Part shown: positions 1-64,000 of the stretch, piece after piece
Position numbering within the stretch: position 1 is the first letter of the stretch
How the letters are laid out: the number at the start of each line of letters is the position of its first letter
Source: a virus
Lineage: Duplodnaviria; Caudoviricetes
DNA length: 64,000 nt
Strand: one strand, 5' to 3'
IMG/VR virus record: IMGVR_UViG_3300033069_001185
Location: 1 to 64,000 of that record
Translations under genes and position numbers: made by a program
Notes under the pieces: generated by a model
The model's input: only the letters and a program-made list of their open reading frames with translations
The model's database searches: none
Told to the model about the DNA's origin: nothing

Positions 1-95
1 TGGATCCCCGATTTTGATAGTAAATGTATGCATTTTTATTCTCCCTTACAGTAAGCATCTAGTCCAATATACGCCTTTTTCGCTTTCATTGCCAT

Positions 96-332
96 TTAAA
101 ACTCTCCTGTAAAAGCGTTAGTTTGTTCCAAAGACCAAACGTTGAGCGATTCTTCGTAGTAGATCTGTTCTGCTGCGACAACAAAATCCACAGGCTTTTG
201 CGGTCCAGTATCAATGACAATCTTGTCAAACTCTGCATTTGATAATCCAGAGATTTTGGTAGTTTTCTGGCGCAATTCCTTATAGGCCTCTCGGAGTTGC
301 GGAGTATCCATTTCTTTGAAGTTGTTTTCCAT
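96..332 (-). CDS. hypothetical early protein, probably leaderless
   Basis: 78-aa ORF; ATG 6 nt after -10 of promoter 339-368. Confidence 0.7.
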   Translation of the reverse strand: MENNFKEMDTPQLREAYKELRQKTTKISGLSNAEFDKIVIDTGPQKPVDFVVAAEQIYYEESLNVWSLEQTNAFTGEF

Positions 333-338
333 GGGTTC

Positions 339-368
339 TTTATACCATTAACGGTTGACGCTAGTCAA
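339..368 (-). promoter_or_regulatory. sigma70-type early promoter
   Basis: TTGACT-18-TATAAA with TG extension. Confidence 0.7.
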
Positions 369-863
369 CTAAGTTTCGTATGCCAGATATGCGTAATCTA
401 GATAGGACTCATAGTTCAGATACACATCTAACTCGTATTTGTGTATATAAGATTTTTTCAGCACCCTGTCATTGTATGAATTGTCAATGTAAAAATCAGT
501 CCCTTCTCTATTTCTAAAGAAATGAATATTACATATTGTGGCGTTTTTGACATTGGCCGTGAGTAGATCTGAAAAAGATATGGCCATAGAATCTAAATTG
601 GCTTCTTCGAAGTTGGCACGGTCCAGAATCGTTCTATTGAAATATGCTGCCTTTAGGTTCGATCTTGTGAAATTCGCCTCAATCAATGTACAGTCATAGA
701 ATTCCACGTACCGAAGGTCCATACCAGAAAAATCAAATCCATCTAAGTATAGATCTCGGAAAACCGCCCTAGATCCGTCCATATTTCCATGTTCCATAAA
801 TTTTTTATGTCCATTTAACAGATCTGTAATCTGGTTCTTGGTGACATCGATGTAAGCTTTCAT
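369..863 (-). CDS. pentapeptide-repeat protein, family member 1
   Basis: ANFTRSNLKAA/ANFEEANL repeats; start moved to ATG 863 after GAGGAGG RBS. Confidence 0.8.
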   Translation of the reverse strand: MKAYIDVTKNQITDLLNGHKKFMEHGNMDGSRAVFRDLYLDGFDFSGMDLRYVEFYDCTLIEANFTRSNLKAAYFNRTILDRANFEEANLDSMAISFSDLLTANVKNATICNIHFFRNREGTDFYIDNSYNDRVLKKSYIHKYELDVYLNYESYLDYAYLAYET

Positions 864-917
864 TTTGAACCTCCTCTTCTTATAAGCCGCGCGCTGAATG
901 ATTTCACATGTCCACAA

Positions 918-1150
918 TTACAGGGCACGGTGTTGAGTGCGCACACGATCACGATCCCACCCGTGAGCACCACAGGGGGCAGTTGGCCGCGCGGGTGAGT
1001 TAGCGATCGCTTTCCGACTGCCTGATCTCTGCGGGAGCAATAAAACAAACACGACCCGCGATCACCACCACATAGAACCCCAGTGGTGTGATCCCTGTGA
1101 GAACCCCTGATCCTCTCGAAGTGCAGAGGATCAGGGGCAGGCAGGGCAGC
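918..1150. ncRNA. candidate structured non-coding RNA in GC-rich intergenic block
   Basis: 13-bp perfect hairpin 1104-1137, hairpins 1060-1093, 1031-1059, 958-997; closing helix 1018-1024/1138-1144. Confidence 0.4.
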
Positions 1151-1339
1151 TTACTTCGAGGCACTGGACACCTGCGCGAAGGTCCACACCTTGCCCGTCC
1201 CGTTGTCGTTCACTTCGTAAACACGTTCCGCCCAAGCGTAAGGCAGTTCTTTGCTGAAGTCGGGAACCACGGTGATTCCAATAATCGAGATTCCTTTGGC
1301 TGCGAGGGCTTTCAGGGTCTTGCGGTTGAAGTCGTTCAT
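1151..1339 (-). CDS. hypothetical protein (GC-rich, MNDFNRK...)
   Basis: GGAG RBS before ATG 1339. Confidence 0.7.
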   Translation of the reverse strand: MNDFNRKTLKALAAKGISIIGITVVPDFSKELPYAWAERVYEVNDNGTGKVWTFAQVSSASK

Positions 1340-1367
1340 GGTGTGTTCTCCGTGCTGCTTTGTATAC

Positions 1368-1574
1368 TTACCAGTTGTTCTCTCGGTCATTCTTGAGTTC
1401 TTCAAACTCAGCCATCCAGCGCTCCGTAGTCAGATCTGAAATACGGTTGGTATAGACCGAAGATTTGCACCAACGATCTGTTCCCGGACCGGCAAAATAT
1501 ACATACCCATTGCCTTGGACGATTTCGAAACCTTAGGGGAGCAGCTTGTTGATTTGCGATTTCGTTGATTTCAT
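1368..1574 (-). pseudogene. small early gene with in-frame TAA at codon 14
   Basis: MKSTKSQINKLLP*GFEIVQGNGYVYFAGPGTDRW...; ATG 7 nt after promoter -10. Confidence 0.6.
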
Positions 1575-1581
1575 AAACAGT

Positions 1582-1610
1582 CTTATATCAATACGACGCC
1601 CTACTGTCAA
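1582..1610 (-). promoter_or_regulatory. sigma70-type early promoter
   Basis: TTGACA-17-TATAAG. Confidence 0.8.
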
Positions 1611-1614
1611 GGAG

Positions 1615-1628
1615 TAATCTTCATATCA
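1615..1628 (+). promoter_or_regulatory. putative late promoter
   Basis: TAATCT-N6-CA before + strand operon. Confidence 0.75.
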
Positions 1629-1640
1629 AAGGGAGTCAAT

Positions 1641-1964
1641 ATGACTATATCAATAGAACCCAAAGACCTAGAAGCCCCTCCGACTAAAATCGGAATGCTA
1701 GAAAACCGTCCGGTATATCAAGCAAAAACGAAGGGCGGCTACCACCTTATCTTTACGCACAAGTCAGGCTCATCTGCCCCTGAGTTCTTGGCGGCTGGCA
1801 ATCACCGAGCCGTTGCTCGTCATGTTGCGGCTAAAAAGAATGAAAATCTTGTTTTTACTGAACTATCAAAGTCAGAGCATGTAAACATCGAACACTATTC
1901 GTATCTTATACCAGACTGTGAAGAACTTACAACCCGAATCCGAAAGTTGAATGGTGACGAGTAA
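1641..1964 (+). CDS. late hypothetical protein (LSKSE motif)
   Basis: RBS GGGAG; follows late promoter. Confidence 0.75.
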   Translation: MTISIEPKDLEAPPTKIGMLENRPVYQAKTKGGYHLIFTHKSGSSAPEFLAAGNHRAVARHVAAKKNENLVFTELSKSEHVNIEHYSYLIPDCEELTTRIRKLNGDE

Positions 1965-2806
1965 TGTCCAAAAGGGTTGCCAGAACTCTTCTGCCGCACT
2001 CTCTACCGTCTCAAACGGTTAGCTTCGATCCGAACGCTTTCAATGAACTCATTCAAAGCCAAGGGGTCAGACTAGTCCATTACAAAGCCTTGCGCTGTCC
2101 GGTAGGAATGGTAGATATTGACGACAATAGAAGGCCACACGAAGACCACGCCGGTTGTTCGAATGGTTTTATCTACTACAAAGCTGGTGTTGTCACGGCT
2201 TTTATGCAAGGCATTGGCAACAGCCAGCAATCACACGATGTAGGGTTACTGGAATCCAGTTCAAGCGCTACTACGTTCCCCCAATTCTACGAAGAATCAG
2301 AAGAACAGGTCATCGTAGCGCCGTTTGACCGTTTCTTCTTGCAAGAAGAAAACGAAGAAGATCAACAGGTTGTAGAGACTTGGCACTTAGTTGTTGCACA
2401 TCAATCTGGCATTGATAGACTGCACTATCCTGCCCAAAAGGTGACCAAACTTATTGATAGCCGTCTGGAAGAATACGAACAATGCAAGGACTTCGAACTG
2501 AAAAACGGCAATATCCAATGGACTGGTAGTCGTAGGCCCGGATATCAGCCTGAGATTGATAAAGGCACTGTTTATTCAGTGCGATATCTATACAGACCTT
2601 ATTGGTATTGTTCCAGACTAATGCACGATCTCCGTTTCAGCCAAATCGAGACCGAAGCTGGTAGACAACTCCAGCGGATGCCTCAACAGGCGCTGCTCAG
2701 TAGAGAATATACCTTTACCAACGAATCGAACGATTCGCAAGCCCGCGATGCCGATTCATTGAGACAAACACCCGGACCGAAAGATGGTGGTTTCGGTCCG
2801 AGATAA
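1964..2806 (+). CDS. putative head-tail connector/neck protein
   Basis: RCP...C.NGFIY motif reminiscent of large-myovirus neck proteins; position upstream of sheath. Confidence 0.5.
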   Translation: MSKRVARTLLPHSLPSQTVSFDPNAFNELIQSQGVRLVHYKALRCPVGMVDIDDNRRPHEDHAGCSNGFIYYKAGVVTAFMQGIGNSQQSHDVGLLESSSSATTFPQFYEESEEQVIVAPFDRFFLQEENEEDQQVVETWHLVVAHQSGIDRLHYPAQKVTKLIDSRLEEYEQCKDFELKNGNIQWTGSRRPGYQPEIDKGTVYSVRYLYRPYWYCSRLMHDLRFSQIETEAGRQLQRMPQQALLSREYTFTNESNDSQARDADSLRQTPGPKDGGFGPR

Positions 2807-2812
2807 GTATTA

Positions 2813-3604: not shown

Positions 3605-3650
3605 GAAGTACCCTCGGCTGGTTGCATAGTAGCTATACCAAACTATAATG

Positions 3651-4149: not shown

Positions 4150-4153
4150 GTGC

Positions 4154-4167: not shown

Positions 4168-4172
4168 ACTAT

Positions 4173-9230: not shown

Positions 9231-9238
9231 ACTTTCCT

Positions 9239-9321
9239 TGGCCCAGCCCGGAATTGAACCGGGATGATTTTGGATCGACGCATTTTGAGTGCGTTGTGTC
9301 TACCATTTCCACCACTAGGCC
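9239..9321 (-). tRNA. tRNA-Leu(CAA), no encoded CCA
   Basis: GGCCTAG/CTGGGCC acceptor, ACGCA-CT CAA AA-TGCGT, long variable arm, TTCAATT T-loop. Confidence 0.9.
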
Positions 9322-9330
9322 ATTCTCTTA

Positions 9331-9501: not shown

Positions 9502-9753
9502 TTAAACAGCCACCGGAACAGATTGCGACCCTTCAACCGCTACGGTTGCGGTTGAAACGGTTGGGGTAGTGGGAGGATTGAGGGCTGCCAAGACTTCCGT
9601 TCGGAGTTCGTAGATACGGTTCGGACGCATGATGGTGCCGAACTGCTCCTTGATACGGCGCTGAGCCTCAGTTCCTGTCATGGCGTTGTTGTTGCGGAAG
9701 AGTTCACGGACGAAGGTTTCGCGTTCAGCTACTACGGTCTTTGAGAGTCGCAT
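9502..9753 (-). CDS. small basic protein, possibly DNA-binding
   Basis: RBS AAGGA, own promoter, helical Arg-rich N-terminus. Confidence 0.6.
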   Translation of the reverse strand: MRLSKTVVAERETFVRELFRNNNAMTGTEAQRRIKEQFGTIMRPNRIYELRTEVLAALNPPTTPTVSTATVAVEGSQSVPVAV

Positions 9754-10033: not shown

Positions 10034-10321
10034 TCAGCGATACCAAGCGGCATATTGTTGGCTCAGGAACTTGTCAAAGCTTTCGATGAGGGCTTCGTTC
10101 CAGCCACTGAAACGTGCAACACCCCACCTGAATCCAATTGAAATTCGCTCTCCGTCTTCGGCCTCAAACTGCCAATACCCAGTATAGCCCAAATCATATT
10201 CGTCAATGTTGATTGTGTGGCGACCAAACATTTCCTGCATTTGCTGCTCTGTAATTTTAATGGTGGGGTAGCCAAGAAAACAGCCGCCGAAGTCATGCTC
10301 TTTGGTTTTTGTGAAGTTCAT
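10034..10321 (-). CDS. hypothetical early protein, probably leaderless
   Basis: ATG 6 nt after -10. Confidence 0.7.
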   Translation of the reverse strand: MNFTKTKEHDFGGCFLGYPTIKITEQQMQEMFGRHTINIDEYDLGYTGYWQFEAEDGERISIGFRWGVARFSGWNEALIESFDKFLSQQYAAWYR

Positions 10322-10327: not shown

Positions 10328-10357
10328 GTTATATCAAAACTATTGATAGTTCGTCAA
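10328..10357 (-). promoter_or_regulatory. sigma70-type early promoter
   Basis: TTGACG-18-TATAAC. Confidence 0.75.
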
Positions 10358-10361: not shown

Positions 10362-10375
10362 TAATCTTTAATGCA
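10362..10375 (+). promoter_or_regulatory. putative late promoter, predicted +1 is A of ATG
   Basis: TAATCT-N6-C-ATG. Confidence 0.75.
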
Positions 10376-11319
10376 TGGAAACTTTATTTATCAGTCTTTT
10401 TGCAAACGATATCGACCACAAAGAAGAACAAGCCTCTACTCATAATGAGTCGGCTGAAATGCGTCGTATCACCCAAGAACTCGAACGAGGAGCTAGGGTA
10501 TTGCACTCTTGGGTACTGACACATTCCGGTGAGATTATATCAAAAATAGGCAATGTCGCTAGGGTTTCTGTTCCCTTAGAGTATGTATCAGAGTTGGAAG
10601 ACGTTGTAAAGAACTATGAATCGGCTGTTCAGTCAACCGTTGCGGTTGGAGTCGGGCTTTCGACCAACGAGGCAGATCGTGCGTTGCAGGTCAGTATCAA
10701 AACCGGCGGATCTTGCATTACGTTCTATACCGAAGAAGTCGAAAAGCAACTGGAAGAGCAAGACGAAGAAGACAAGGAAGACGGCATTGCCCACTTGGAA
10801 AGATACCTAGACAAGTCAGAACATCCAAAACAGAAACAGTTTGAACAGCATGTTCAGGCAAAAGAGTCTATCAAAAGAAAGGTAGAGGAAGATCAGCAAG
10901 CCACAGAATCTGCCCAGACCGTCAAGGCTCAGGTATTGCAATTGCTTCAAGAGCTTAAAGAACAGGCTCCGGTCATCGAACAGCTCAAAGAACAAGCACC
11001 CGACGTATATCAATCCGTAACGAACATGGTCAATGGTGTGGCCCTTATGGCTCGTGAACTAGCAAAACAAAAGCCAGAGGAAATGGCTAAGGCTATCAAA
11101 GCGAAACACCTCAAAATGAACTACATGCCGAACTTCCACTTGCCAGCCGGTCCGGGAACTTCTCATGGAAAGGGCGGCAAGCTAAAAGTGATGCACTCTA
11201 ATGGTAAAACCACTTGGATTAGTGTACGTGCTGGCATGATTATGAGCCCCGAGGGTCGTCCTACTTCTAGCCGCCATCCTTCTGGCTACAAGCCAGAGGA
11301 TCATGACGAAAATCCATAA
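10375..11319 (+). CDS. putative head-associated late protein
   Basis: LDKSE, MAKAI motifs, coiled coil. Confidence 0.55.
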   Translation: METLFISLFANDIDHKEEQASTHNESAEMRRITQELERGARVLHSWVLTHSGEIISKIGNVARVSVPLEYVSELEDVVKNYESAVQSTVAVGVGLSTNEADRALQVSIKTGGSCITFYTEEVEKQLEEQDEEDKEDGIAHLERYLDKSEHPKQKQFEQHVQAKESIKRKVEEDQQATESAQTVKAQVLQLLQELKEQAPVIEQLKEQAPDVYQSVTNMVNGVALMARELAKQKPEEMAKAIKAKHLKMNYMPNFHLPAGPGTSHGKGGKLKVMHSNGKTTWISVRAGMIMSPEGRPTSSRHPSGYKPEDHDENP

Positions 11320-15115: not shown

Positions 15116-17629
15116 ATGGCTCAATCTTTATCAACTACCTCAGGCGTCGCTTATATCCCCGGTGGATATAGCACTATCAGAGTCCAGAACGGTACTTCTG
15201 GCCTAGCCACTTCTGGCGTTCTACTCTTGGTGGGCGAAGCCGATCAGGGTGATGCTTACACGCTTGAGACGGATTTGGAAAACAACTCATTCGGTCCAGA
15301 CCAGTTAGCCGATGTACAATTGAAATACGGCTCAGGGCCTCTTGTTGATGCATTCCGAGCGGCTTGTGCTCCGGCTGACGATCCACAAATCGGCGGCTCG
15401 TTTGCCAAAGCCGTTATGGTTAAGACCAACGCCTCAACCAAGGCCTCAGGTAATCTAACCAATGTTGCGTCTGGTACTTACGGTACGCTTGTAGCAAAAT
15501 CTTCTGGCAAAGTTGGCAATCTCATTACGTATGTAGTCACTGCCGATACCTCGGAAGCGTTGCCCACGACTGGTGCCTTTACTTGGGTTCCTAACGTTGC
15601 CTCACTCAATGCGGACTTCCGTGTTACCGGTGCGGCTTCGGTTCCGCTAACTGTAGGCGTAAATACCAGCCCTTCGGCTTTTGTTACTGCCGTTGACGGT
15701 TTGTCAGGCGTTGCTGCAACCGGTGGCGCTACCCGTGGCGTACTACCCGGCCTAGCTGCTGGTACTTTGGCTCTCTCTGCCGTTGCGAATGCGGTTACCA
15801 TCACCCGATCGGTAGCTTTCGCAGTTACTCCTACCGTTGGCGATACCATGATTATCCCCACTGGCTCAGTTCTTTCATCTTGGAATGACCAAAATGTCGG
15901 TGGATACGTAGTCACTGGTGTTACCTCAACCACGATTTCAGCCACCAAGCTGTCAGACGCCGGTAAGGCGCTAGGTCCTGCTCCGGTTGCAGGCGTAGTC
16001 ACCGCTCCGGTTGCTGTAAATACTACTGCAATGGCTGCCACCTCAGACGTACAATGCTTCGCTCCTGTCACCATCACCCTAGAAGCTGGCTCAGTAGTTG
16101 ACGGTGTTGGCAAAACTCTGGAAATCAATGCGCTGACTACAGGAACTGACTTACTGACCCGTTGCGCCTATGCCGGTTCGATCACTCCTGTCACTTTCAT
16201 TTCAACATCCGCTACTCCTGTCGTGATTGCTGCGACTTCGGAATACAAAGCCAAACTCACTGTATCACGGGCTGTTGATAACTTGCAAGAGATTCTAACT
16301 GCTGGCGGCGACATCGCTCTCAAAGTTAGCTATACCGGTACTACTGCAACCGTTACCATTACCGATACTGCGGTTACTTCAGTCGTTGCTGGTGGTTCAG
16401 GAGCTGCTCTTCCGGCCATTACCCTAGCTGATTATCCTACTATTGCGGATTTGGCAAGCTTTATCAATGCGCAGACCGGCTGGAAGGCTGCGGTAGGCTC
16501 AGCCGCTGCTGGAAATCTACCCACCAGCGCTCTTGACAATGGCACTTTTAATGTTTGCTCAACCTTCGGCGCACATGTTGGCCGAATCAAAGCAGACGGT
16601 TACAACTTCTTCAATACTATCAAAGACGGTTCGGCGCTTGTCCAGCTAAACACTACTCCAACTCAGGCCGCTGCTGGGTTGCCAGTCGTTGCTGCTCTCG
16701 CCTATTTGGCCGGTGGATTGAAAGGTTCAACCACCAGTGAAGAGGTTCTCGCTGCGATTGATGCGCTGGAAGCCGTCCACGGTAACTTCGTAATCCCGCT
16801 CTTTAGCCAAGACGCCAGCCGCGATATCATTGCTGGCCTAACGGAAAGCGGCTCGACGTATACCATTGAGGCTATCAATCTAGCCGTCAAGACCCACGTA
16901 CTCAAGATGTCAACGCTGAAGAAACGCCGGAATCGTCAGGCGTTTCTATCAATCGAAGACACCTTTGCCAATCAGAAAGAAGCGGCTTCGAATCTAAGCT
17001 CAAGCCGTTGCTCAGTCGCTTTCCAAGACTTCAAGCAACTCACTTCAGCCGGTACTATCAAACAGTTCCAGCCTTGGATGGGTGCGGTCATTGCCGCTGC
17101 CATGCAGGCCGCTGGTTTCTATAAGGCTATTTTCTTCAAAGGTATCAATACTGTTGGCACGGTCCATGCAGATGGTAGCTTCAAAGAAAACAACGACAGT
17201 CAGGTTGAGGAAGCACTGAAGGCCGGTCTCATGCCAGCCCGCAAGGCACAGACTGGCGGGTTTATCTGGGTTTCGGATCAGACCAGTTATATCAAAGACG
17301 AGAACTTTGTCTATAACTCAGTTCAGGCTGTCTACACTGCTGACCTGATTGCGCTAACCACTGCTCAAAAAATGGAAAAAGCGTTCGTTGGACAGTCGGT
17401 TGCCGATATCTCAGCAGCGCTGGCCCTATCATACCTAGAAGGCCTCATGGCTGAGTTCCTAAGACTCAAGCTCATTGCACCTTCTGACGACGCACTGAAG
17501 GGTTTCAAGAACGCCAAGATCCGAATCAACGGTGGGTCAATGTTTGTCAGCGTCGAAATCAAACTCGCTGGCGCTCTCTACTTCTCATTGATTGACTTCT
17601 TGGTTAGCCCGGTTGTTCAGTCAGCGTAA
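15116..17629 (+). CDS. tail sheath protein
   Basis: Y.PG.Y start, VGEAD.G, YGSGPLVDA, sheath-type C-terminus; followed by tube. Confidence 0.9.
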   Translation: MAQSLSTTSGVAYIPGGYSTIRVQNGTSGLATSGVLLLVGEADQGDAYTLETDLENNSFGPDQLADVQLKYGSGPLVDAFRAACAPADDPQIGGSFAKAVMVKTNASTKASGNLTNVASGTYGTLVAKSSGKVGNLITYVVTADTSEALPTTGAFTWVPNVASLNADFRVTGAASVPLTVGVNTSPSAFVTAVDGLSGVAATGGATRGVLPGLAAGTLALSAVANAVTITRSVAFAVTPTVGDTMIIPTGSVLSSWNDQNVGGYVVTGVTSTTISATKLSDAGKALGPAPVAGVVTAPVAVNTTAMAATSDVQCFAPVTITLEAGSVVDGVGKTLEINALTTGTDLLTRCAYAGSITPVTFISTSATPVVIAATSEYKAKLTVSRAVDNLQEILTAGGDIALKVSYTGTTATVTITDTAVTSVVAGGSGAALPAITLADYPTIADLASFINAQTGWKAAVGSAAAGNLPTSALDNGTFNVCSTFGAHVGRIKADGYNFFNTIKDGSALVQLNTTPTQAAAGLPVVAALAYLAGGLKGSTTSEEVLAAIDALEAVHGNFVIPLFSQDASRDIIAGLTESGSTYTIEAINLAVKTHVLKMSTLKKRRNRQAFLSIEDTFANQKEAASNLSSSRCSVAFQDFKQLTSAGTIKQFQPWMGAVIAAAMQAAGFYKAIFFKGINTVGTVHADGSFKENNDSQVEEALKAGLMPARKAQTGGFIWVSDQTSYIKDENFVYNSVQAVYTADLIALTTAQKMEKAFVGQSVADISAALALSYLEGLMAEFLRLKLIAPSDDALKGFKNAKIRINGGSMFVSVEIKLAGALYFSLIDFLVSPVVQSA

Positions 17630-19553: not shown

Positions 19554-19677
19554 TTAGTTCTGGTCTTGGCTCAGGAGGTACTTCAGATAGTCGTCTATAT
19601 TGATAGTAATGCCTCCTCCTTTATAAAGCGTGGCTCTCCATCATGCGTTCGATTCGTTCTGGTGTAGGTTTTTTCAT
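19554..19677 (-). pseudogene. pentapeptide-family gene with entire repeat core deleted
   Basis: MKKPTPERIERMMESHAL* joined out of frame to ...GITINIDDYLKYLLSQDQN*. Confidence 0.7.
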
Positions 19678-20141
19678 TTTGTTACTCCGAAAAGCCTGAA
19701 GTAATCGTCTATGTTTAAGGAGTACGACATCTTAGATTTGACGGTGTTCATTTTGTATAGAGTGATTTCGGGGGCATCTTGGGCATAGCTACACAGAAAA
19801 ACTTTTGCGATGCTTGTCTCATAGACGGTCGTTTGGTCGAAAAGCGCATCTAAAAATGAACCATCGAAGCCTTCAACTAAACGGAAATCTGCATACTCAA
19901 AAGTCGCATCTTTTAGCAGACATTTTTCAAACCGGCAACTATCAAGTCTCGAATCCTCAAAATTTGCGTTTGTTAAGTCGCAGTTAACAAAGTCTGCTCC
20001 GCTCAGGTCAAGAAATGACAGGGTTCTTGAACCTAGATCCATATTGGAAAACTCAGCACGTTTTCCTTTGCTTTTCCCGATGACCCAATTTTCATGGTCT
20101 TTGACGATTTTTGCTATCTCTTTTTTAGTAGGTCTAAACAT
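19674..20141 (-). CDS. pentapeptide-repeat protein, member 3
   Basis: RPTKKEI..H..W cap, ADFVNCDLTNANF, LNIDDY tail. Confidence 0.8.
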   Translation of the reverse strand: MFRPTKKEIAKIVKDHENWVIGKSKGKRAEFSNMDLGSRTLSFLDLSGADFVNCDLTNANFEDSRLDSCRFEKCLLKDATFEYADFRLVEGFDGSFLDALFDQTTVYETSIAKVFLCSYAQDAPEITLYKMNTVKSKMSYSLNIDDYFRLFGVTK

Positions 20142-20144: not shown

Positions 20145-20219
20145 CGATCTTGGCTGGACTCGAACCAGCGACCCTCGGCTTAGAAGGCCGATGCTCTAAT
20201 CCATCTGAGCTACAAGACC
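20145..20219 (-). tRNA. tRNA-Arg(TCT), no encoded CCA
   Basis: cloverleaf, TCGGC-CT TCT AA-GCCGA. Confidence 0.92.
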
Positions 20220-22635: not shown

Positions 22636-22715
22636 TGCACAGACGTGGAATCGAACCACGAATGCCCGAAGGCCACAGATTTACAGTCTGCTGAGCGCCA
22701 TCGCTCACTCTGTGC
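22636..22715 (-). tRNA. tRNA-Tyr(GTA), no encoded CCA
   Basis: GCAGA-CT GTA AA-TCTGT, variable hairpin, TTCGATT. Confidence 0.9.
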
Positions 22716-22721: not shown

Positions 22722-22793
22722 TTGGCCCACCAAGAGTTGAACTTGGATCTAGCACTTATAAGGTGCTGGCTCTAACCGTTGAGCTATAGGCCG
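22722..22793 (-). tRNA. tRNA-Ile(TAT), no encoded CCA
   Basis: AGCAC-CT TAT AA-GTGCT; C1:A72 mismatch. Confidence 0.85.
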
Positions 22794-24645: not shown

Positions 24646-25167
24646 ATGTATAAGCCAACACAGATCGAAATAGATAAGATGATGGAGGCCCATTCTGTTT
24701 GGCTGTCTAGTGCTCCCAATGCAGGCAAACAGGCTAATTTTAGCAATATGGATTTGGAAGGCATCAGCCTTGAGGGTCGGAACTTGTCGTTGGCGATACT
24801 TTCCGGGACTAAATTTGCTGGGTCAAATCTTCGAGACGCCTCACTTTGCAATTCTATGTTGAGTAAAAAAACCAATTTTGTCGGCGCAAATCTAGAACAG
24901 ACACACATCAGCAGTATGAATCTATCGCACTGCTCTTTCGATCCGGTCGGGCTTTCCAAAGCCCTGTACCTCTACAACGTAACTGTTGCTATTCGAGGTC
25001 GCAATTTTCTGAGGTTATTCACCCATACGCCGGATCTAACTACAGAAGAGGTCTTGGAGATAACGAAGCCACAGCCACAGACCACAATATTAAGATACCA
25101 CAACTTAATAGATATCAATCCAGACCAGTTTCTAGATTTGGTAGAAAGTGGGCTTTTTAGCCCCTAA
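24646..25167 (+). CDS. pentapeptide-repeat protein, member 4 (opposite orientation)
   Basis: MYKPTQIEI..H..WL..GKQANFSNMDL. Confidence 0.8.
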   Translation: MYKPTQIEIDKMMEAHSVWLSSAPNAGKQANFSNMDLEGISLEGRNLSLAILSGTKFAGSNLRDASLCNSMLSKKTNFVGANLEQTHISSMNLSHCSFDPVGLSKALYLYNVTVAIRGRNFLRLFTHTPDLTTEEVLEITKPQPQTTILRYHNLIDINPDQFLDLVESGLFSP

Positions 25168-43538: not shown

Positions 43539-46500
43539 ATGGCAAGTGTTCCTACACCCAAATCTTTCAATCAAATTCTAGGAGACGCGCTAGACGCGCT
43601 CACTAGTCGATTGGGCATTCCCAAATTGCCGCCCGGCGATCCTATTCTGTCTATTCTGGAAGCGACCAGCCAGTCAGACTTCAGAACCTCTCAGGACATT
43701 TTTCAACTGCTCAACTCAATCGTACTTGACCGTGCGACGGGATTGGCTTTGGACAGAATCGCTGCTGATGAAGATTTAGCTCGGTATTCAGAAAGCCCCG
43801 CGACCGGTACTGTAACCATCTCTGATACTTCTTTCGAAAAGAAACAGAGCACTATTTTCCAAGGACTTTCTGCTCCTGCTGTGGGCTCGACGACTATCAA
43901 TGTCGTATCTGCTCTCGGCTGGCCCGGCACTGGCAATATTTATATTGGCAGAGGTACTACCGAATATGAAGGTCCAATACCATATTCCAGCATTGTTGAC
44001 AATGGTACTTATTGGACTATCAATTTAACTACCAATACTACAAAATACCATAACCTAGGATCGGGCGTTGTTCTGGCTCAGGGCGGCAATCGACAGATCG
44101 CTTCCGGGACTGTGGTGCAAACTCCACAGGGCAATGCTGGTACGGCAGTTCAATTCACCGTTCAATATACCGCCGTTATTCCTGATGGCGAAACCGAAAT
44201 TACTTCTGTCCAAGTTGTAGCGAAGAAGCCGGGAGTAATCGGCAATGCTTCCGCAAACTCGGTGAATTCATTCACAAGTGCTCCCTTCACTGGTGCTGCC
44301 GTTAACAATACGACTCCATATACCAATGGACGAGCCACCGAAGAAGACAATACTTTTAGAGAAAGAATCCGTACCGCGAGACAGTCAAAGCAAAAGGGCA
44401 TAGCTCTTGCAATCAAGAGTGGTGTGATTGGTGCTGTTGCTACTGACGAGAACCGCAGAATTCTGTCTTCGTCTTTGGTGGCAAGAGAAGGTTATCCAAC
44501 GACCCTGTATATTGACGACGGCTCGGGCTACGAAGAGAAAACCCAAGGTACTCCTTTCGAAGTGATCGTTGACTCAGCTTTGGGTGGCGAACGCTATTTT
44601 GATTTGGCCGAAGGTCGTCCTGTAACAAAAGCCTTTGCCACCACTAGCCTATCAGCCCCTTTTATTTTACAGCCAAATGCACAATTAGCCGTCAAGGTCG
44701 GTGGTAAAACGTACATTCACAGCTTTACCTCGACATCATTCCGGTCTATTGATAGCGCAACGGCATACGAAGTGGCAGCGTCTATCAACTCCAACCCAGC
44801 GCTTGGGTTTAATGCTAGAACGATTGAAAACGGCAAAAGAGTATCGTTGTTTGCCGTAGCCGACACAGGCGAAGACATTGAAGTTGTTGCCCCAGTGCAA
44901 GGATCAATTGATGCCAATATATATCTTGGCTTTCCTACCGGTGCCAACAATACCCTAAGACTCTACAAAAACGACGTTCTATTATCAAAAGACGGCTCAA
45001 TTGCCAGTATCGCTTCTAACCCCCAATCAGCTTGGGGCTCAACCTCTGATGGAGAAACTCTGTCTATTGTGGTTGATGGGACTCCGGCCTTTACCGTTAC
45101 TATCAATGATTCAGATTTCGTCAACGCCGGAACTCCTTATAATACCGTTGTCTCTACGAACAGTACAGATAGCTGGGCCAAAGTATTGAATTACCTGATT
45201 CCCGGCGTAACCGCAACTGCGAACTCTGGAATTGTAACAATAACTTCGAACCTAGGGAAAACCTCAAGGGCTTCTGTAGAAATCCTCGCCGGTAGTTCTC
45301 TGGTTTCTAATGGGCTGTTTAATGTTTCGGTATCTCAAGGTTCTGATTCCGACTATACTCTGAACAGAAATCGCGGTCAAATCAGACTCGAAGAAGCGTT
45401 GTCTGTTGGAGATCGGCTCACGGCTGGTTCTTATGATACTCGGGCATTCATTGAAAGCGATTCGATTGGCACTATCAATCTAGGCTCAAATGCTAATTTG
45501 TGGTTTAGCGTTGACGGCAATGCCAGAATAATACCAACCGGACTATTGACGGGATCGGCTCTTGTCATTACCAGCTCTGTGACCGCTTATGGTAAGAGAG
45601 TTCGTGCAACCGCTTCCACGAGTGTTTTTGATAGTGTAAATGTATTGGACTGGATCATCATAGACGACCCAGCGCTTAGTGCGAATGCAGGTGCTTTCAA
45701 GATTGTTAGAAAATCCTCAACTTGGATTGAGTGGGAAAGAGAATCTGCGTTTGCGGGTACTGGTTCGTTTACGCTGTCTGCTGGCGGATTTACTGTTGCC
45801 AGAACGACCGATCAGATCCAAAAAGTAACAATACCTTCTGGCACTAACTATACTGCATTGACTCTTGTTGCTGCTATCAATAACTCAATTCTGGGTGCAA
45901 AAGCTTCTGTTTATAGGACTACTAAAATCCGGGTTCAGACCAACTCGTTCGCTAGTGGCAGTATTGCTCTTTTATCGGCAGATGCCGCAGGTAAGCAGCT
46001 ATTACTACCAATTGCTAGCGCTGTTGTCAATGTCGATTCTCATCTTGCCAGCGTTGTGGGTAATCCTCAGGCTGGTACTCCAAGCTTTGAGAACACTCTT
46101 AAGGCCAGTTCAACTACCGGCCCAGACAATTTTGATTCAGCAACCCTTGGTACTATCAATGAGGGACAACTCATTGTTGCCGACAAGCCAGTGAGCGACG
46201 GAATCGGTCGTGACTCCAATAGAACACACGTTAGCGCGATCGAAGATATTGCTACTAACACTATATCATTGCGGACGCCAGTTCTCAATAGCTGGCTCAC
46301 GGACGATGCGGTCTATCATGCCCGCCCGTTTGCTCTTAATCCTACTGATACTTTCGGTCTTATCATTGACTCGGAGCAAATCACCCATAGGTACAACCTG
46401 AATCTGTGGCGCAAAGTCAAGGCAACCACCAACGTCTATGGACTTACCAACGACTTCACAGATGCCGACAACGGCAATGCTTCTTTGGCTAGCGCTTTCG

Positions 46501-49061
46501 GTCTTGATTTTGATTTCACTGATTTCGCAGCTTACATGAAAGCCCGTGTCCGTACCCATGTTGTGGGCGGACTCAATACCGATAGAACTATTCTATATAA
46601 GTATGCAAGATTTGGACCAGAAGGTGAGCTTGCGCGACTACAGTATCGCTACCCATCACAACCTTCAAAGGCCGTAGCTCTTACCACCGAAACAACCAGT
46701 TCCGATAATGTAAATATTGTTATCAATCTTCCGTCAGGTGCAGCGCGTACCGGCCACACAATGAGACCTTCATCGAAAGTGGGTTTCAATACTCTTGCCG
46801 CACCTGTCGCAGGTCTTTATACCTATACCGTAACCCTCAGTCTAGATCTAACCCAGATCCAACGAACAGTCATTAACGTTGCAACCGCAACCGTAGCTCT
46901 CCCCGCTGGCATTACCGATCACGGCCTCAATATTGGTAATCGAATCTATCTTGTATCGACCGACGGCGCTTTCCCGTCTGGCTTGAAGTTGATTACGGCC
47001 AGACCGCCGGCCCCGGCCACCACCTTTGATTACGTCGACTCAGGCCCCATCGTAGGCGCAAGCCCTAATGCAGGTTCGGTATCGTTTGATAGTGTTGGCG
47101 AAGTCACGCTGAATGGTTCTACCGTGATTGTCGGAGACATTTTCGGCCAGCACAATCTGAACACAGGGACCGGTGGTGGTTCCAGAATCTCAGCCATTGC
47201 TGGCAACAATAGAAGCTTTAACATTACTTCAGACTTTGCTGCCGCTGTGAATACTACGATCAACTGGACACCGATTGGCAGTGCTGGGTTCTCTTACAGC
47301 TTTTTTCCGATCAATGCGGCTACTGCTACTGGCTTGGCTATTGCTAGCGCGGTCAATGCAATGAATGCATCAGTAACGGCAACAAACCTTGGTGCTGGCC
47401 TAAGCGTTATTGACTATGCAACTTACGAGCCAGCTCCTAATGGAGAAGGTGCGCTAACTCCTTGGTATACGCTCAGCGATGGTTTGAATTGGATCAAGTC
47501 CCAAACGAACCCTTTGCTTGTTGCAAATAACTACACCTTTGATTTTAAAAAGAGCATCACGGCTGGTCTAGGTACTGACTCTAATTGGTCTACCGAAGAC
47601 GTTCGCTTGGTGCCCACTACGGCCAAAAATATAGTCGATTTCCTGAATTCTACGGCAACTTCTGGGCTCCGTTCTGTAGCAATGGCGGAACTCACAGACA
47701 ACGGCCAAAGACCTCAAATCTCTTCACTGAAGATCGGGTCTTCTGGCTCTGTAGCAGTAAATGGTGGTTCTGGCAATAGCTACTTTGCTACAGCCAAAAC
47801 CAGCGCCGTAGCGACAAACTCCAACGCCCGCTGCATTGTGTCTTTTGATACATCAGACACCCAAGGTCTTTCGGCCAATCAATGGGTCGTTCTACAGAAC
47901 TCAACGGCTGTACCAAAAACCAGATTGTCTGCAACGACTACATTCAACTCTATTGATACTTCTGGAAACGTTGTTCTTTCCGTAACAAGAGCTTGGGACT
48001 GGGCCAATACCGCTGCGGCTTCTGTTACTGGGGACTGGGAAGTTATCAAGAACGGTAACTTTGTTCAGATGCGTGCCACTTCAGGAACACCCGCCGTTGG
48101 GGTAAAAGAAGGGGACTTCGCTATCATTAACATTACTTCCGGCTCTACGAGTAATGAATTTCTGTCTGGAGTTCGAATCGTTCGGGTTTCAGCGGATGGC
48201 AAAGTTTTCTGGATCGAAAGTCCCAACGCTACCGAAGAAATTGCTACTGCAACGATTCACTTCGTCACATATGACAGTGTTGTTCCGGGCGATGTACTAT
48301 CAATAAATAGCTCAATTCTAGGAGTTGGCAATGTAGGCCAATGGGTAGTTGAATCAATCGATCTGACCGACCGATTCAGATTCAAGTTGGCCACAGGTAC
48401 TGTTGCTCCAGTTGCGTTAGTCGTTCCTGTTACGCTCAATAGCGAAGCCGGACTGGTCCATGTGATTGAGAGAGCCCCTTCCAAACTGTTCAAGCAAATC
48501 CGAACTATTTTCCCAAATTCCGCTACGATGTCTACGGTCAAATTCACGACCAGTGAAGGTTATAGCAAAATTGGTCCGTTTGCCGGAACCATCCTCCAGT
48601 CTTTGGACAAACTAAACTTCAGCACCACACCTGCTTTCGGCTCAGACGCTTACACGCATAACACTGGTCTTATAGCAGAATGCAACGCCATTGTCTATGG
48701 CAAAGAATCAGATCCTTCTACTTACCCCGGTCTCGCTGCTGCTGGTGTGAATATCAATATCACAGGACCGCTGATCAAGAAAATTCAAGTCTCATTGGCA
48801 ATCAGAGCTTCTATCAATACTCAAAGCGTTATTGATAGAGTCAAGTCTGAGGTGGCTGCTGTTATCAATAATACGGCCATCGGTGCTCCAATTGCCATCA
48901 GCTCTTTGGTTCAAGCCGCCCAAAGCGTAAACGGAGTAACTGCCGTAACCGTACTCAGCCCTCTTTACGGTTCGGGCTCAGATCTAATTTCAGTTCAACC
49001 TTTCGAAAAACCTCTTGTCTTGGACGTTGATTCAGACGTTCTTGTCTCTCTTGTGGGATAA
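43539..49061 (+). CDS. very large baseplate wedge protein (gpJ/gp6-like with inserted domains)
   Basis: ATG.ALD.IA, G..GN, E.D..FR.RI, C-terminal V.GV..V. Confidence 0.85.
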   Translation: MASVPTPKSFNQILGDALDALTSRLGIPKLPPGDPILSILEATSQSDFRTSQDIFQLLNSIVLDRATGLALDRIAADEDLARYSESPATGTVTISDTSFEKKQSTIFQGLSAPAVGSTTINVVSALGWPGTGNIYIGRGTTEYEGPIPYSSIVDNGTYWTINLTTNTTKYHNLGSGVVLAQGGNRQIASGTVVQTPQGNAGTAVQFTVQYTAVIPDGETEITSVQVVAKKPGVIGNASANSVNSFTSAPFTGAAVNNTTPYTNGRATEEDNTFRERIRTARQSKQKGIALAIKSGVIGAVATDENRRILSSSLVAREGYPTTLYIDDGSGYEEKTQGTPFEVIVDSALGGERYFDLAEGRPVTKAFATTSLSAPFILQPNAQLAVKVGGKTYIHSFTSTSFRSIDSATAYEVAASINSNPALGFNARTIENGKRVSLFAVADTGEDIEVVAPVQGSIDANIYLGFPTGANNTLRLYKNDVLLSKDGSIASIASNPQSAWGSTSDGETLSIVVDGTPAFTVTINDSDFVNAGTPYNTVVSTNSTDSWAKVLNYLIPGVTATANSGIVTITSNLGKTSRASVEILAGSSLVSNGLFNVSVSQGSDSDYTLNRNRGQIRLEEALSVGDRLTAGSYDTRAFIESDSIGTINLGSNANLWFSVDGNARIIPTGLLTGSALVITSSVTAYGKRVRATASTSVFDSVNVLDWIIIDDPALSANAGAFKIVRKSSTWIEWERESAFAGTGSFTLSAGGFTVARTTDQIQKVTIPSGTNYTALTLVAAINNSILGAKASVYRTTKIRVQTNSFASGSIALLSADAAGKQLLLPIASAVVNVDSHLASVVGNPQAGTPSFENTLKASSTTGPDNFDSATLGTINEGQLIVADKPVSDGIGRDSNRTHVSAIEDIATNTISLRTPVLNSWLTDDAVYHARPFALNPTDTFGLIIDSEQITHRYNLNLWRKVKATTNVYGLTNDFTDADNGNASLASAFGLDFDFTDFAAYMKARVRTHVVGGLNTDRTILYKYARFGPEGELARLQYRYPSQPSKAVALTTETTSSDNVNIVINLPSGAARTGHTMRPSSKVGFNTLAAPVAGLYTYTVTLSLDLTQIQRTVINVATATVALPAGITDHGLNIGNRIYLVSTDGAFPSGLKLITARPPAPATTFDYVDSGPIVGASPNAGSVSFDSVGEVTLNGSTVIVGDIFGQHNLNTGTGGGSRISAIAGNNRSFNITSDFAAAVNTTINWTPIGSAGFSYSFFPINAATATGLAIASAVNAMNASVTATNLGAGLSVIDYATYEPAPNGEGALTPWYTLSDGLNWIKSQTNPLLVANNYTFDFKKSITAGLGTDSNWSTEDVRLVPTTAKNIVDFLNSTATSGLRSVAMAELTDNGQRPQISSLKIGSSGSVAVNGGSGNSYFATAKTSAVATNSNARCIVSFDTSDTQGLSANQWVVLQNSTAVPKTRLSATTTFNSIDTSGNVVLSVTRAWDWANTAAASVTGDWEVIKNGNFVQMRATSGTPAVGVKEGDFAIINITSGSTSNEFLSGVRIVRVSADGKVFWIESPNATEEIATATIHFVTYDSVVPGDVLSINSSILGVGNVGQWVVESIDLTDRFRFKLATGTVAPVALVVPVTLNSEAGLVHVIERAPSKLFKQIRTIFPNSATMSTVKFTTSEGYSKIGPFAGTILQSLDKLNFSTTPAFGSDAYTHNTGLIAECNAIVYGKESDPSTYPGLAAAGVNINITGPLIKKIQVSLAIRASINTQSVIDRVKSEVAAVINNTAIGAPIAISSLVQAAQSVNGVTAVTVLSPLYGSGSDLISVQPFEKPLVLDVDSDVLVSLVG

Positions 49062-60957: not shown

Positions 60958-61367
60958 TGCGAGCACGAACTTTAACAGCCGCCCATGCAGTTTGCTACAT
61001 TAACGGGCAAGTCTATGCGTTTGTCAATGGATTCAACTGGGATTCTCAAACCCCAGCTAGGCCTATTTACGGCCTAGACAGTGCCGACCCTTACGAACTT
61101 GCTCCTACCACCACCAAAGTGTCTGGAACTATTGGTGTTTTTAGGACCGTTGCCGACAAAGGCGCACAGGGCGCCGGTATGGTTCCGTATTTCGAGCAAG
61201 TACCGAACGGTAAGTATTTCTCTATATCAATAGTAGATAGATCTACGGATATGTTATTATTCCAATCTGATACAGCAATTTTGCAATCGGAGTCTTGGTC
61301 TATTCCAAGTAAAGGTTTGATAACTGGGCAGCTCAGATTTGAAGCCATAACGTGGACTAACCAGTAA
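60957..61367 (+). CDS. second tube-like protein
   Basis: RTLTAAHA..YING and PIYGL parallel the tube gene 17652. Confidence 0.6.
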   Translation: MRARTLTAAHAVCYINGQVYAFVNGFNWDSQTPARPIYGLDSADPYELAPTTTKVSGTIGVFRTVADKGAQGAGMVPYFEQVPNGKYFSISIVDRSTDMLLFQSDTAILQSESWSIPSKGLITGQLRFEAITWTNQ

Positions 61368-61378
61368 TCTTTATATCA
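61365..61378 (+). promoter_or_regulatory. putative late promoter
   Basis: TAATCT-N6-CA overlapping stop. Confidence 0.7.
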
Positions 61379-61397
61379 TAACCCCCAAAGGATTCCT

Positions 61398-64000
61398 ATG
61401 TCCGTTCTTCGCAAACTCAATGTTTTGCCACAATTAAGAGTTGATGCTCCACACTTGCGAATGATCGAAAGCGCCGTAGCTGGCGATTTTGATACAGTCG
61501 TAGGTAAGATGATGGCCGGTGGTAAGCCGTTTGTTATTCGCGGTTTTACATTGATTGGGACCTCAGTTGGTTCCGCTGCAAATCAGATGACTCTTGTAAC
61601 AGCAGACTCCATCGCTGTCAACCTGAATGCTTCGGAATCTGGCTCGTTTCTATGGATCCCTGCAAACCGTCCCAATGAGACTCTGGATCCGGCCACTAAT
61701 GGTAAAGTCACAGGATCGTTCGCCTCAGGCGTTACAAACTACGTAGGCATTGACTTCAAAAGAAGCCCAGACGCTTCCACTACAGACTTGGCTAAATTCT
61801 TAGACGCGGACTCCCTCTCTAGTGTAAAGACTGAATCGACTAGAAGTATTCCCCTTGGACTAACTCTTGACTACCGTATTGTTATAAGCACGGTTCCGTT
61901 CTCAAGCACCCCCAATATCATTCCGATTGCTAAAGTCGTTACCAATGTTAACAATGCAATCAGTACGATTGTCGATGCACGACCGATGATGTACCGGCTT
62001 GCAACTGGTGGAGATTTTCCGAATAGCGAAAACGTATATTCTTGGCCGTTCAATCGTGCCGAGAATTCAAGTTCAAACCTGTTTTCAGGTGGTGACAAAA
62101 ACATTGCTAGCGAGAAAGACTGGCGTGACGCAATCATGTCCCGAATTTGGGAACTCGGTGGCGGCGAAAACTGGTACAGCCCAACTGCCGATCGCAATGT
62201 TAGGATGGTTTACGAGCCGGGTGTCGTGTTTTCGAACGGCCAAAACTTCGAAGGGGTTGCTAACAATCTGCACTGGCGTGGACTAAGCATTCTTTTCGAT
62301 AATGCAAACAGCCCCGGAGTTTATTACAACGAAATTGCCGATCAATTAGTGGACTCTGCTGGTTTAACAGACCTAGCCCCCGGTGAATGCATCTATGCAG
62401 ATATTGATCGTACCCAAAACCTGATCGGCGTCGCCGCTATCGTTGCTCAAAAAGCAGTAATGCAAACGCTAGGCAGTCCCGTCGTACCGGGCTCTCGTTA
62501 TATAATCGCTTGGCGAACTTCAGACGCTGGTAATTTTACCATTTGGACTCGTGATGGATCGTATCCGGTCGACTTTACATTCCAGCCTGCAACTCCAACC
62601 TCTCTTGGGGCTGTCAGACTAAATGTTCCGTCTGGTACGCCCGGAACGCCAACCGTTGTCACTTTAAATTCAACCAACAGTATTGCTATTGGAACTGTTG
62701 GCTACCCTGTTACCGGCAACAATACGGCTATAATTGCAACTGGCAGTGGGAGCGGTTCTGGCATTACCTCAACCGGTGGTGCTACTGGTAATGGTATTGT
62801 AGCAACTGGCGGAAGCACTTCGGGTGCTGGCGGTGTGTTTACTGGAACCGGAACTGGTAATGGTGTTACTGCCGTGTCGTCAAGTTCAATCTCATTTGCC
62901 GTATCTGCTCAAGGGTTTTCTCCGGTATCTTCAGCAGCTGGCGGTAAGGCTGGCCAATTTGTCGGTGGCGACGGGAGTGCCGCAACTATCGGAACGGCAA
63001 GGGCCGGTGGGGCTGGATCTAGGTTTTTTGGTGGTAACGGCAGTGCCACAAATCCGGGCGGGGCAGGTGGAGAAGGTATAGTCTCGGACGGTGGTTCTGG
63101 TGGTAATTCACCTGCTGGCACAGGTGGTGCGGGTGCCGTTGGCGGCCAATTTGTCGGTGGGGTTGGTGGAGATTCTTTCGCACCTTCTTTCCCCGGAGAT
63201 GGCGGGGCAGGTGTTTCGGCATTTGGTGCAGATTCTGGCATAAGAAATGACGGAGTTAGAACCAATGGCGGCGCTGGTGTAAGAGCCAGCGGTGGTGCTG
63301 GTTTTGCGGGCGGTGCTGGCGTAATCGGTACTGGCGGAGATGCGACACTAGGAGGCCTCGGCGGCGCAGGCGGTGTTTTCAGCGGGGCTGTTCAGGGTAT
63401 TGGAACGGCGGCTTCTGACGGCGTTGTTGCGATTGGTGGCGACGGAGGATCAGTAACTGGTCACGGAATTACAGCGATTAGCGGGGATGGCGGGTTTGGC
63501 GGTTATTTTTCTGGTGCTCTAGGTGGCGCTCGCTTTTTTGGTACAAACGCAAATGCTCCCGGCATCGAAGCATCTTCTAATGGAACGAGCACTGCTGTCA
63601 TTGCAAGCCCTCTCGGATCGGGCAAAGCTTTCTATGCGGTTGCTGGTGATGTCGTAATTCAAGCAGCAAATAGCTTCAGATATGACACAAATGTCACAAA
63701 AACTATGCACGTACCAATGTCGGATTTTCAATCGACAACGGAGGCTGGTTCTTTCAGTCCAATTGTAACGATTAGTACGGCCAATGCTTTGGCGAAACTG
63801 ACAAGCCAAACTTCTGGTCCTGCTACGGCTGCGGCTAAGATCCGATTACCTCACGGTGCGTATATCACCAGTATTGAATTTGCCGTACTGAACATAGACG
63901 GGGTGGCGCGAGATACTCGGTGGGCTATTGTTCATAATACTTATAATGTTGCTGGCTATTTTCCCACCGTTGTGCATCTTAGCGGAGGTCCCACTCAGAC
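61398..64000 (+). CDS. tail fibre-like protein with Gly-rich region, truncated by window end (absent from ORF track)
   Basis: AAAGGA RBS, MSVLRKLNVLPQLRVD...; frame spot-checked at 62760 (GITSTGGATGNGIVATGG). Confidence 0.75.
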   Translation, partial: MSVLRKLNVLPQLRVDAPHLRMIESAVAGDFDTVVGKMMAGGKPFVIRGFTLIGTSVGSAANQMTLVTADSIAVNLNASESGSFLWIPANRPNETLDPATNGKVTGSFASGVTNYVGIDFKRSPDASTTDLAKFLDADSLSSVKTESTRSIPLGLTLDYRIVISTVPFSSTPNIIPIAKVVTNVNNAISTIVDARPMMYRLATGGDFPNSENVYSWPFNRAENSSSNLFSGGDKNIASEKDWRDAIMSRIWELGGGENWYSPTADRNVRMVYEPGVVFSNGQNFEGVANNLHWRGLSILFDNANSPGVYYNEIADQLVDSAGLTDLAPGECIYADIDRTQNLIGVAAIVAQKAVMQTLGSPVVPGSRYIIAWRTSDAGNFTIWTRDGSYPVDFTFQPATPTSLGAVRLNVPSGTPGTPTVVTLNSTNSIAIGTVGYPVTGNNTAIIATGSGSGSGITSTGGATGNGIVATGGSTSGAGGVFTGTGTGNGVTAVSSSSISFAVSAQGFSPVSSAAGGKAGQFVGGDGSAATIGTARAGGAGSRFFGGNGSATNPGGAGGEGIVSDGGSGGNSPAGTGGAGAVGGQFVGGVGGDSFAPSFPGDGGAGVSAFGADSGIRNDGVRTNGGAGVRASGGAGFAGGAGVIGTGGDATLGGLGGAGGVFSGAVQGIGTAASDGVVAIGGDGGSVTGHGITAISGDGGFGGYFSGALGGARFFGTNANAPGIEASSNGTSTAVIASPLGSGKAFYAVAGDVVIQAANSFRYDTNVTKTMHVPMSDFQSTTEAGSFSPIVTISTANALAKLTSQTSGPATAAAKIRLPHGAYITSIEFAVLNIDGVARDTRWAIVHNTYNVAGYFPTVVHLSGGPTQ

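Follow-up and report, generated by a model that had tools for sequence, protein, structure and literature searches.

The first 64,000 nucleotides of the viral contig IMGVR_UViG_3300033069_001185 (positions 1 to 64,000, called the window below) are filled with copies of a short asymmetric word, the octamer TATCAAWA (W is A or T). The word is maintained in the DNA itself, whatever the strand, the reading frame, the class of gene or the position, and the pressure behind it is strong enough to dictate codon choice and, in places, the amino-acid sequence. The contig is an IMG/VR record of 128,385 bp (rated 79% complete, 45.6% GC) from a phage with T4-resembling structural genes, among them genes for a tail sheath, for proteins of the baseplate and for a tail-fibre attachment catalyst of the RNA-ligase type. 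The nearest named phage is Myxococcus phage Mx1, whose tail sheath is 48% identical. We propose tentatively, with a probability of roughly 0.3, that TATCAAWA may be a self-tag, recognised as an asymmetric single site by a sequence-specific phage protein that is particular to this lineage.

The over-representation is visible at the level of the hexamer core. In the window 118 copies of TATCAA and 92 of its complement TTGATA are found, while base composition predicts about 21 of each (21.2 per 64 kb), and TATCAA is by a wide margin the most over-represented hexamer under Markov models of order 1, 2 and 3 (z = 27.8, 20.1 and 15.1), a ranking that agrees with the first-pass annotation, which had singled out this hexamer by manual counting. 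Its figure of 41 TATCAA on the plus strand between positions 1 and 18200 is exact (composition predicts about 6), and the approximately 19 copies that it had placed in a 5.5-kb structural gene become 20 on recounting. Alignment of the 210 cores shows A or T at position 7 in 186 and A at position 8 in 125, so that the full unit is the octamer TATCAA[A/T]A and not the bare hexamer; the preferences in its flanks (t-a on the 5' side, a-c on the 3' side) are weak. The octamer is not its own reverse complement, i.e. it is non-palindromic. The features concerned are as follows.

1..64000, both strands: octamer TATCAAWA, scattered over the window in 58 forward and 57 reverse copies.
43539..49061, plus strand: gene for a 1840-aa baseplate or wedge-like structural protein, with 14 TATCAA and 6 TTGATA cores.

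In the whole contig TATCAAWA occurs 208 times (105 forward, 103 reverse), compared with 18 occurrences (9 + 9) of a control word made of the same letters read backwards, and the ratio of observed to expected copies lies between 10 and 16. The enrichment is graded among related words. It reaches 16-fold for TATCAATA, 15-fold for TAACATTA, 10.5-fold for TAACAATA, 9.7-fold for TATCAAAA and about 5-fold for TATCAATC and TATCAATG, and it falls to 4.3-fold for TAGCAATA; the variants TAACAATA, TAACATTA and TAGCAATA thus span a range of 4 to 15. The family can be written as TA-N-CA-W-W-A, and in the form TA[ATG]CA[AT][AT]A it has 376 members in the contig, compared with 58 expected, of which 107 + 95 are in the window. 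Searches of the literature for TATCAA returned primers only.

As 92% of the sites lie in coding DNA, the enrichment was compared with null models that preserve the coding content of the entire 128-kb contig, genes being called by a simple longest-open-reading-frame rule. When synonymous codons were shuffled within each gene, 164 ± 10 hexamers were obtained, compared with 389 observed (z = 22), and 54 ± 5 octamers, compared with 208 observed (z = 31; shuffle maximum 69). When amino acids, codons and dinucleotides were all preserved, the corresponding values were 234.5 ± 9.6 hexamers (z = 16) and 76.8 ± 5.8 octamers (z = 23; shuffle maximum 90). The first-pass annotation had named, as what would refute a selected mark, a loss of the enrichment under a null that preserves amino acids and dicodons; under the two shuffles above it persists, with z between 23 and 31 for the octamer. 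It was also claimed earlier that the word occurs in coding DNA on both strands and in different frames, and this is borne out, for each frame in which the word introduces no stop codon is enriched 5- to 20-fold over a permutation of codon order (sense, 112 vs 8.7; antisense, 80 vs 7.3). Codon, dipeptide and dinucleotide bias are ruled out by these three shuffles.

The extent to which the opportunities are used is also high. Of 457 peptide contexts in which the word can be written by synonymous choice, 192 (42%) contain it, while codon usage predicts 28 (6%); in favourable frames 52–77% of the opportunities are filled, and the fill rate is 37–50% in every gene module. In a per-gene test no gene was significantly poor in the word, and recently acquired word-free genes were not seen. 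Synonymous permutation alone yields 35 copies compared with 16 from codon-order permutation, and therefore the protein sequences themselves are bent towards the word. An amino-acid cost was looked for in the tail sheath gene by comparison with 38 relatives and was rejected: the residues under cores are as conserved as the rest (19/27 vs 548/810 elsewhere), and therefore the word is placed there mostly through synonymous choices.

15116..17629, plus strand: tail sheath gene, 9 TATCAA cores; it served as the query for relatives.

Matching of the word to tRNAs encoded by the phage (Leu-CAA, Ile-TAT and Tyr-GTA) was likewise rejected, as only 2–6% of the codons in question lie inside cores (ATA, 18/423; TTG, 18/743; TAT, 46/726). 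The phage carries five tRNA genes, namely Leu(CAA), Arg(TCT), Tyr(GTA), Ile(TAT) and an Asn tRNA with the unusual anticodon ATT; one is at L022:7492-7566 (genome ~105492-105566) and the others are at window positions 9238-9322, 20145-20219, 22636-22715 and 22722-22793.

The sites are scattered along the genome in a Poisson-like manner that amounts to genome-wide cover, as the spacing analysis suggested in the first-pass annotation has shown. Distances between octamers are exponential (mean 617 bp, coefficient of variation 0.96, Kolmogorov-Smirnov p = 0.96), and the largest gap, 2.9 kb, is within chance. The overall density is 1.6 per kb, and the mean spacings on the single strands are 1206 and 1252 bp, i.e. 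about one site per 1.2 kb. The orientation of neighbours is random (same in 95/207, p = 0.27) and close pairs occur at the Poisson rate. A switch of polarity or orientation, such as might mark an origin, was not seen along the contig, and a bipartite or periodic structure was rejected as well, since the ±45 nt around the sites contain no partner motif and no particular spacing is favoured. Two local arrangements may be listed, of which the cluster of four is within Poisson expectation and the inverted pair is the sole operator-like arrangement seen.

48752..48870: four octamers in 119 bp (48752 plus, 48812 plus, 48830 reverse, 48863 plus).
10332..10348, both strands: perfect inverted octamer pair TATCAAAA-C-TATTGATA, located in the gap that separates the divergent genes 10034-10321 (minus) and 10375-11319 (plus).

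The density of sites between genes is about double that within coding DNA, and 18 of the 208 octamers lie wholly or in part in intergenic DNA. The proposal that TATCAA belongs to early −10 regions stands in part. In early promoters of sigma-70-like type some copies of TTGATATAA do act as the extended −10 element, but overall the link is marginal: only 4 of 22 TTGATATAA copies have TTGAC at −35 spacing, and 16 of 208 octamers (7.7%; 6.7% for the reverse orientation) lie within 80 nt upstream of a gene start on the same strand, which is 4.9% of the sequence space. A promoter element, whether of the T4 late type (TATAAATA) or a sigma-70 extended −10, was therefore rejected as the general explanation, since the sites are not concentrated upstream of genes. 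The word had further been placed at late start sites, and this was not confirmed, as the late gene junctions carry TAATCT(TTA) instead. TAATCT, often in the form TAATCTTTA, is found at junctions preceding plus-strand structural genes, and its TAA often doubles as the stop codon of the upstream gene. It may be a late promoter or another gene-junction signal.

10362, 13213, 14213, 15086, 25779, 34834, 40950, 43483, 52968 and 61365, plus strand, in the window: TAATCT junctions.

The word is shared by two contigs from other samples that are about 99% identical to the present genome. One, L010, has 21 cores in 4.9 kb; the other, G414, has 62 octamers in 43.9 kb compared with 7 control words (8.9-fold). 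Between G414 and the present genome 398 substitutions are found in 43.2 kb, and 60 of 61 octamers are common to both. Hexamer cores took 2 substitutions where 6.7 were expected (p = 0.036) and octamers 1 where 4.6 were expected (p = 0.057), marginally significant statistics which hint at ongoing purifying selection on the sites. The sole part not shared with G414 is the segment from window position 62614 to 64000, continuing to genome position 64188; these approximately 1.6 kb, which cover the 3' half of a 929-aa open reading frame (61398-64184), are replaced in G414 by about 0.6 kb.

In more distant relatives the word is absent. Mx1 has 4 octamers in 170 kb, and the word was not found in about 25 loci from phages at 26–54% sheath identity; two AT-rich relatives show 1.6–2.3 times the control, which is the baseline of ordinary bacteria (about 2). 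Among the relatives that were analysed as whole contigs, none contains a word in hundreds of copies. Relatives of intermediate distance, at 93% and 60–64% sheath identity, are known as proteins; the contigs that encode them did not come up in IMG/VR or in the metagenome collection. As judged from the contigs compared, the word is lineage-specific, present only in those about 99% identical and absent at 54% sheath identity or below. A three-copy pattern scan of IMG/VR gave, among the matches listed, only local iteron clusters and AT-rich chance hits. In unrelated proviruses of isolate genomes, TATCAAAA is present as three tandem copies 11–13 bp apart (G006:50760-50791, G008:1813-1844 and G009:1779-1810). 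These triplets look like origin iterons, which would mean that proteins binding this word do exist. Other words are over-represented in related loci: CTCGAG in L011 and L012, TTCGAA in L013 and L024, GATATC in L019, L028 and L034 and less so in L016, GCCGGC and CCTGGA in L014, L015 and G004, and GGTGGA in G002 (131 vs 36). G004 also has about ten copies of a promoter-like word, CGTTATAG.

Any reading of TATCAAWA has to meet the following facts: the signal is at the DNA level, asymmetric without strand preference, evenly spread, near half saturation, graded among variants and lineage-specific. A self-tag read by a phage protein is supported by the DNA-level signal with its enrichment in all frames, the 42% saturation, the even cover, the graded variants, the lineage specificity and the avoidance of substitutions in the sites. 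The graded enrichment of the variants is more like a matrix of binding affinities than like a site that an enzyme reads strictly. The denser and the more even the cover, the better the phage DNA would be recognised, which is the logic of uptake sequences, and recognition would select this DNA, apart from that of the host, for headful packaging, for coating or compaction, or for shielding. Of the earlier suggestion of a selected genome-wide mark, the parts that stand are thus the action at the DNA level, the whole-genome extent and a hint of purifying selection; the link to promoters, the late starts and the proposed binder do not.

Several points weigh against a self-tag. No reader protein was found, and the contig contains no gene of the HU/IHF family. 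The protein named earlier as a possible binder, listed below, is a poor candidate, for a weak homologue of it is present in Mx1, where the word is lacking. T4-like terminases, as far as is known, do not require a sequence tag. The gain in fitness from one weak binding site would be tiny, so that simple binding does not readily account for a saturation of 42%, and the data fit a duplex reading and a single-strand reading alike. The word-bearing relatives compared are all about 99% identical, which makes the comparative evidence thin.

9502..9753, minus strand: gene for an 83-aa protein with a possible helix-turn-helix, preceded by a strong early promoter.

An alternative that we consider unlikely is a Chi-like function. 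TATCAAWA would then be a single-stranded word read by a helicase-nuclease (RecBCD or AddAB of the host, or a gp46/47-type enzyme of the phage), switching it from degradation to recombination, and, as headful packaging of a permuted genome leaves its ends random, both orientations would be needed. An asymmetric octamer that is equal on both strands and evenly spread has the expected form, and variant words of Chi typically keep partial activity. The extreme restriction pressure on this phage means that frequent double-strand breaks are expected, and its replication and recombination genes are T4-like (RecA/UvsX-like recombinase, DnaB-like helicase, DnaG-type primase, gp46-like ATPase and RNase H). 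Enrichment of Chi in phages also has precedent, strongest in T5-like and P1-like phages, and no other phage precedent is of comparable size (PMC3784561). However, Chi is reported to be most strongly over-represented in phage genera without recombinases (Bobay et al. 2013, PMC3784561). The present phage has its own RecA/UvsX-like and gp46-like genes, and it also encodes Mre11-like phosphoesterases. Every known Chi sequence is G-rich, whereas TATCAAWA is AT-rich. Moreover, its 1.6 copies per kb are to be compared with 0.2 per kb for Chi in E. coli (PMC3784561).

Enrichment in possible host genomes was looked for in one phylum: in 401 genomes of the phylum Cyanobacteria the ratio of octamer to control was 1–4 (none above about 4), ordinary bacteria being at about 2, and scans of genome contigs with the PurA and pentapeptide-repeat proteins of the phage gave no close homologue. 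The restriction pressure is seen in the whole contig as the almost complete elimination of nineteen 6-bp palindromes and of CCWGG. CCGCGG, CGGCCG, CGTACG, CTCGAG, CTGCAG, GAGCTC, GGGCCC and GTGCAC are absent where 12–34 copies of each are expected; CAGCTG, GCCGGC, GGTACC, GACGTC and ACGCGT have one copy each, and AGTACT, GCATGC, GGCGCC, CCCGGG and CACGTG have two or three. Nearly all hexamers that contain CCAGG or CCTGG are absent as well, which indicates avoidance of CCWGG. The phage, which has a Dam-type methyltransferase, does not avoid GATC. Such extreme avoidance implies that the DNA is unmodified and that the host is unusually rich in restriction systems. Several of the words over-represented in the relatives are palindromes that are eliminated here.

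It is less probable still that the word is a modification target, i.e. that TATCAAWA or its complement TWTTGATA is the site of a divergent D12-class adenine methyltransferase and that the methylated sites carry a function, as has been suggested for HIP1 together with its methyltransferases. Two D12-class enzymes are encoded. The first is a GATC enzyme of the DpnM/Dam type (2dpm, E = 2e-69); the second is the candidate.

85637-86389 of the genome: second, divergent D12-class adenine methyltransferase, with no solved relative.

The divergent enzyme is absent from five relatives that lack the word, including the complete Mx1 genome, and present at 94% identity in the word-bearing G414; its closest homologues range from 65% to 91% identity, mostly on short contigs of unknown kinship. 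The complement of the word contains GAT, the core read by Dam-type enzymes. On the other side, the specificity of the divergent enzyme cannot be read from its sequence, and the enriched variants TAACAA and TAGCAA remove the GAT, unlike a strict methyltransferase site. A methylation site by itself gives no reason for over-representation. In addition, lineage-specific genes are many, so that co-occurrence in one lineage set against five absences is weak evidence.

Neutral molecular drive appears improbable. A bias in repair or gene conversion, for which very-short-patch repair may serve as a model, would turn near-matches into the word without benefit to the phage. Some one-mismatch neighbours are indeed scarce (TATTAAAA, for example, has 0 copies vs 3.8 expected), and the even spread over all genes regardless of function would agree with such a process. 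The depletion of neighbours is weak, however, and partly an artefact, as the word itself raises the expectations. Repair of the Vsr type is coupled to the deamination of C5-methylcytosine, and among the genes scanned none for a C5 methyltransferase was seen. A drive of this kind would also need specificity for eight bases together with graded tolerance.

A role as a replication word is more improbable again. Here TATCAAWA would be a preferred initiation or loading site for the primase-helicase of the phage, present on both strands at about the spacing of Okazaki fragments. The spacing of 1.2 kb per strand is of Okazaki scale, the strands are equal and the cover is uniform. A phage primase that reads an 8-nt template word does exist, the NrS-1 PrimPol, which reads 5'-TTTGGTTA-3' (PMC8718748). 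However, the primase of the present phage is of the DnaG/Toprim type (Aquifex DnaG 2au3, E = 1e-5), and no PrimPol domain is present (no match to PF09250). DnaG, T7 and T4-type primases read trinucleotides. The spacing is also random rather than regular.

It is hardly credible that the word is an artefact or by-product of codon or dipeptide bias, tRNA matching, copies of promoters or compensation for the avoidance of palindromes: a part of the signal does lie in protein sequence and codon use (the shuffles give 54–77 octamers vs about 11–18 from base composition), and phage tRNAs read UUG, AUA and UAU, codons found within the word, but the observed count lies above every single shuffle, both orientations and all open frames are enriched, few of these codons fall inside cores, sites do not gather upstream of genes, and independent contigs from other samples contain the word too.

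Further genes of the phage may be noted. It encodes a split-intein DnaE polymerase, whose intein domains were confirmed. Genes for a deoxynucleoside monophosphate kinase, a 5'-nucleotidase and a dUTPase are inside the window, while two purine-metabolism genes, for an adenylosuccinate synthetase and an enzyme of the IMP dehydrogenase or GMP reductase family, are outside it (L020:15979-17121, minus, and L021:2919-3938, minus). A Z-genome was considered and rejected, as the PurA-like gene matches bacterial PurA (E = 1e-72) far better than PurZ (1e-20) and is a true PurA. Three pentapeptide-repeat proteins are encoded in the window (369-917, minus; 19674-20141, minus; 24646-25167, plus) and could be DNA mimics or gyrase-interacting proteins.

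If the self-tag is real, a lineage-specific phage protein would distinguish by it the DNA of the phage from that of the host, so that the former is packaged, protected or replicated. A fill of 42% across a 128-kb genome of a lytic-type phage implies a strong selective agent that acts on every kilobase, and no known phage function predicts such saturation. Identification of the reader could reveal a new way in which phages mark or protect their own DNA, or alternatively it could show Chi-like or methylation-based signalling in an unstudied host. We raise, equally tentatively, the possibility that lytic phages carry genome-wide self-recognition words of their own, a viral counterpart of uptake sequences, and that TATCAAWA may be one case of a widespread undescribed class; no account of such a recurring phenomenon was found in the papers searched. 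In practical terms, such words could serve as a lineage signature for the binning and host-linking of metagenomic phage contigs, and they are a constraint to respect when phage genomes are recoded.

Compared with known families of words, TATCAAWA is closest in behaviour to uptake sequences and HIP1 and closest in setting to the Chi-enriched phages, and it departs from every family tested in one or more defining features. The DNA uptake sequences (DUS) of Neisseriaceae and uptake signal sequences (USS) of Pasteurellaceae are also short asymmetric words that occur about once per kb in both orientations and through coding DNA, that shape the choice of codons and amino acids, and that are lineage-specific. 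They differ in being chromosomal words of naturally competent bacteria, recognised by the machinery of DNA uptake, whereas TATCAAWA is in a lytic-type, T4-like phage; and while close inverted pairs of DUS or USS act as terminators, TATCAAWA shows no excess of inverted pairs. HIP1 (GCGATCGC) of cyanobacteria is similarly hyper-abundant, is maintained at the DNA level in all frames and has a possible link to a methyltransferase, but it is a palindrome of bacterial chromosomes, whereas TATCAAWA is asymmetric and in a phage; HIP1 itself has only 3 copies here. The likeness to HIP1 and uptake sequences drawn in the first-pass annotation thus holds in density and in running through genes.

Chi in P1-like and T5-like phages is likewise an asymmetric octamer far above expectation in a concatemer-packaging phage, and the magnitude of the enrichment is similar to that of Chi in P1. 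TATCAAWA differs from it in being AT-rich, about eight times as dense as Chi in E. coli and without polarity, in a phage that has its own recombinase. The stoperators of cluster A mycobacteriophages, 13-bp repressor sites, resemble it as many dispersed asymmetric copies of a site bound by a phage-specific protein. They number about 30, lie between genes and are oriented along transcription, unlike the 208 copies of TATCAAWA, which are mostly within genes (92%) and in both orientations (sense 112, antisense 80). By inspection, TATCAA matches the WATCAA core of the IHF site (WATCAANNNNTTR); a full IHF site was rejected, as there is no T-T-R signal at +10 to +12 (four bases downstream) and no HU or IHF gene in the contig. 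From the other phage words considered (AGCGCCAG, TCGGCGGA, CTGRACAG, GGYCTCAG, GTGTCGA and AGTACT) TATCAAWA differs in letters and in lineage, being AT-rich, non-polar and non-palindromic.

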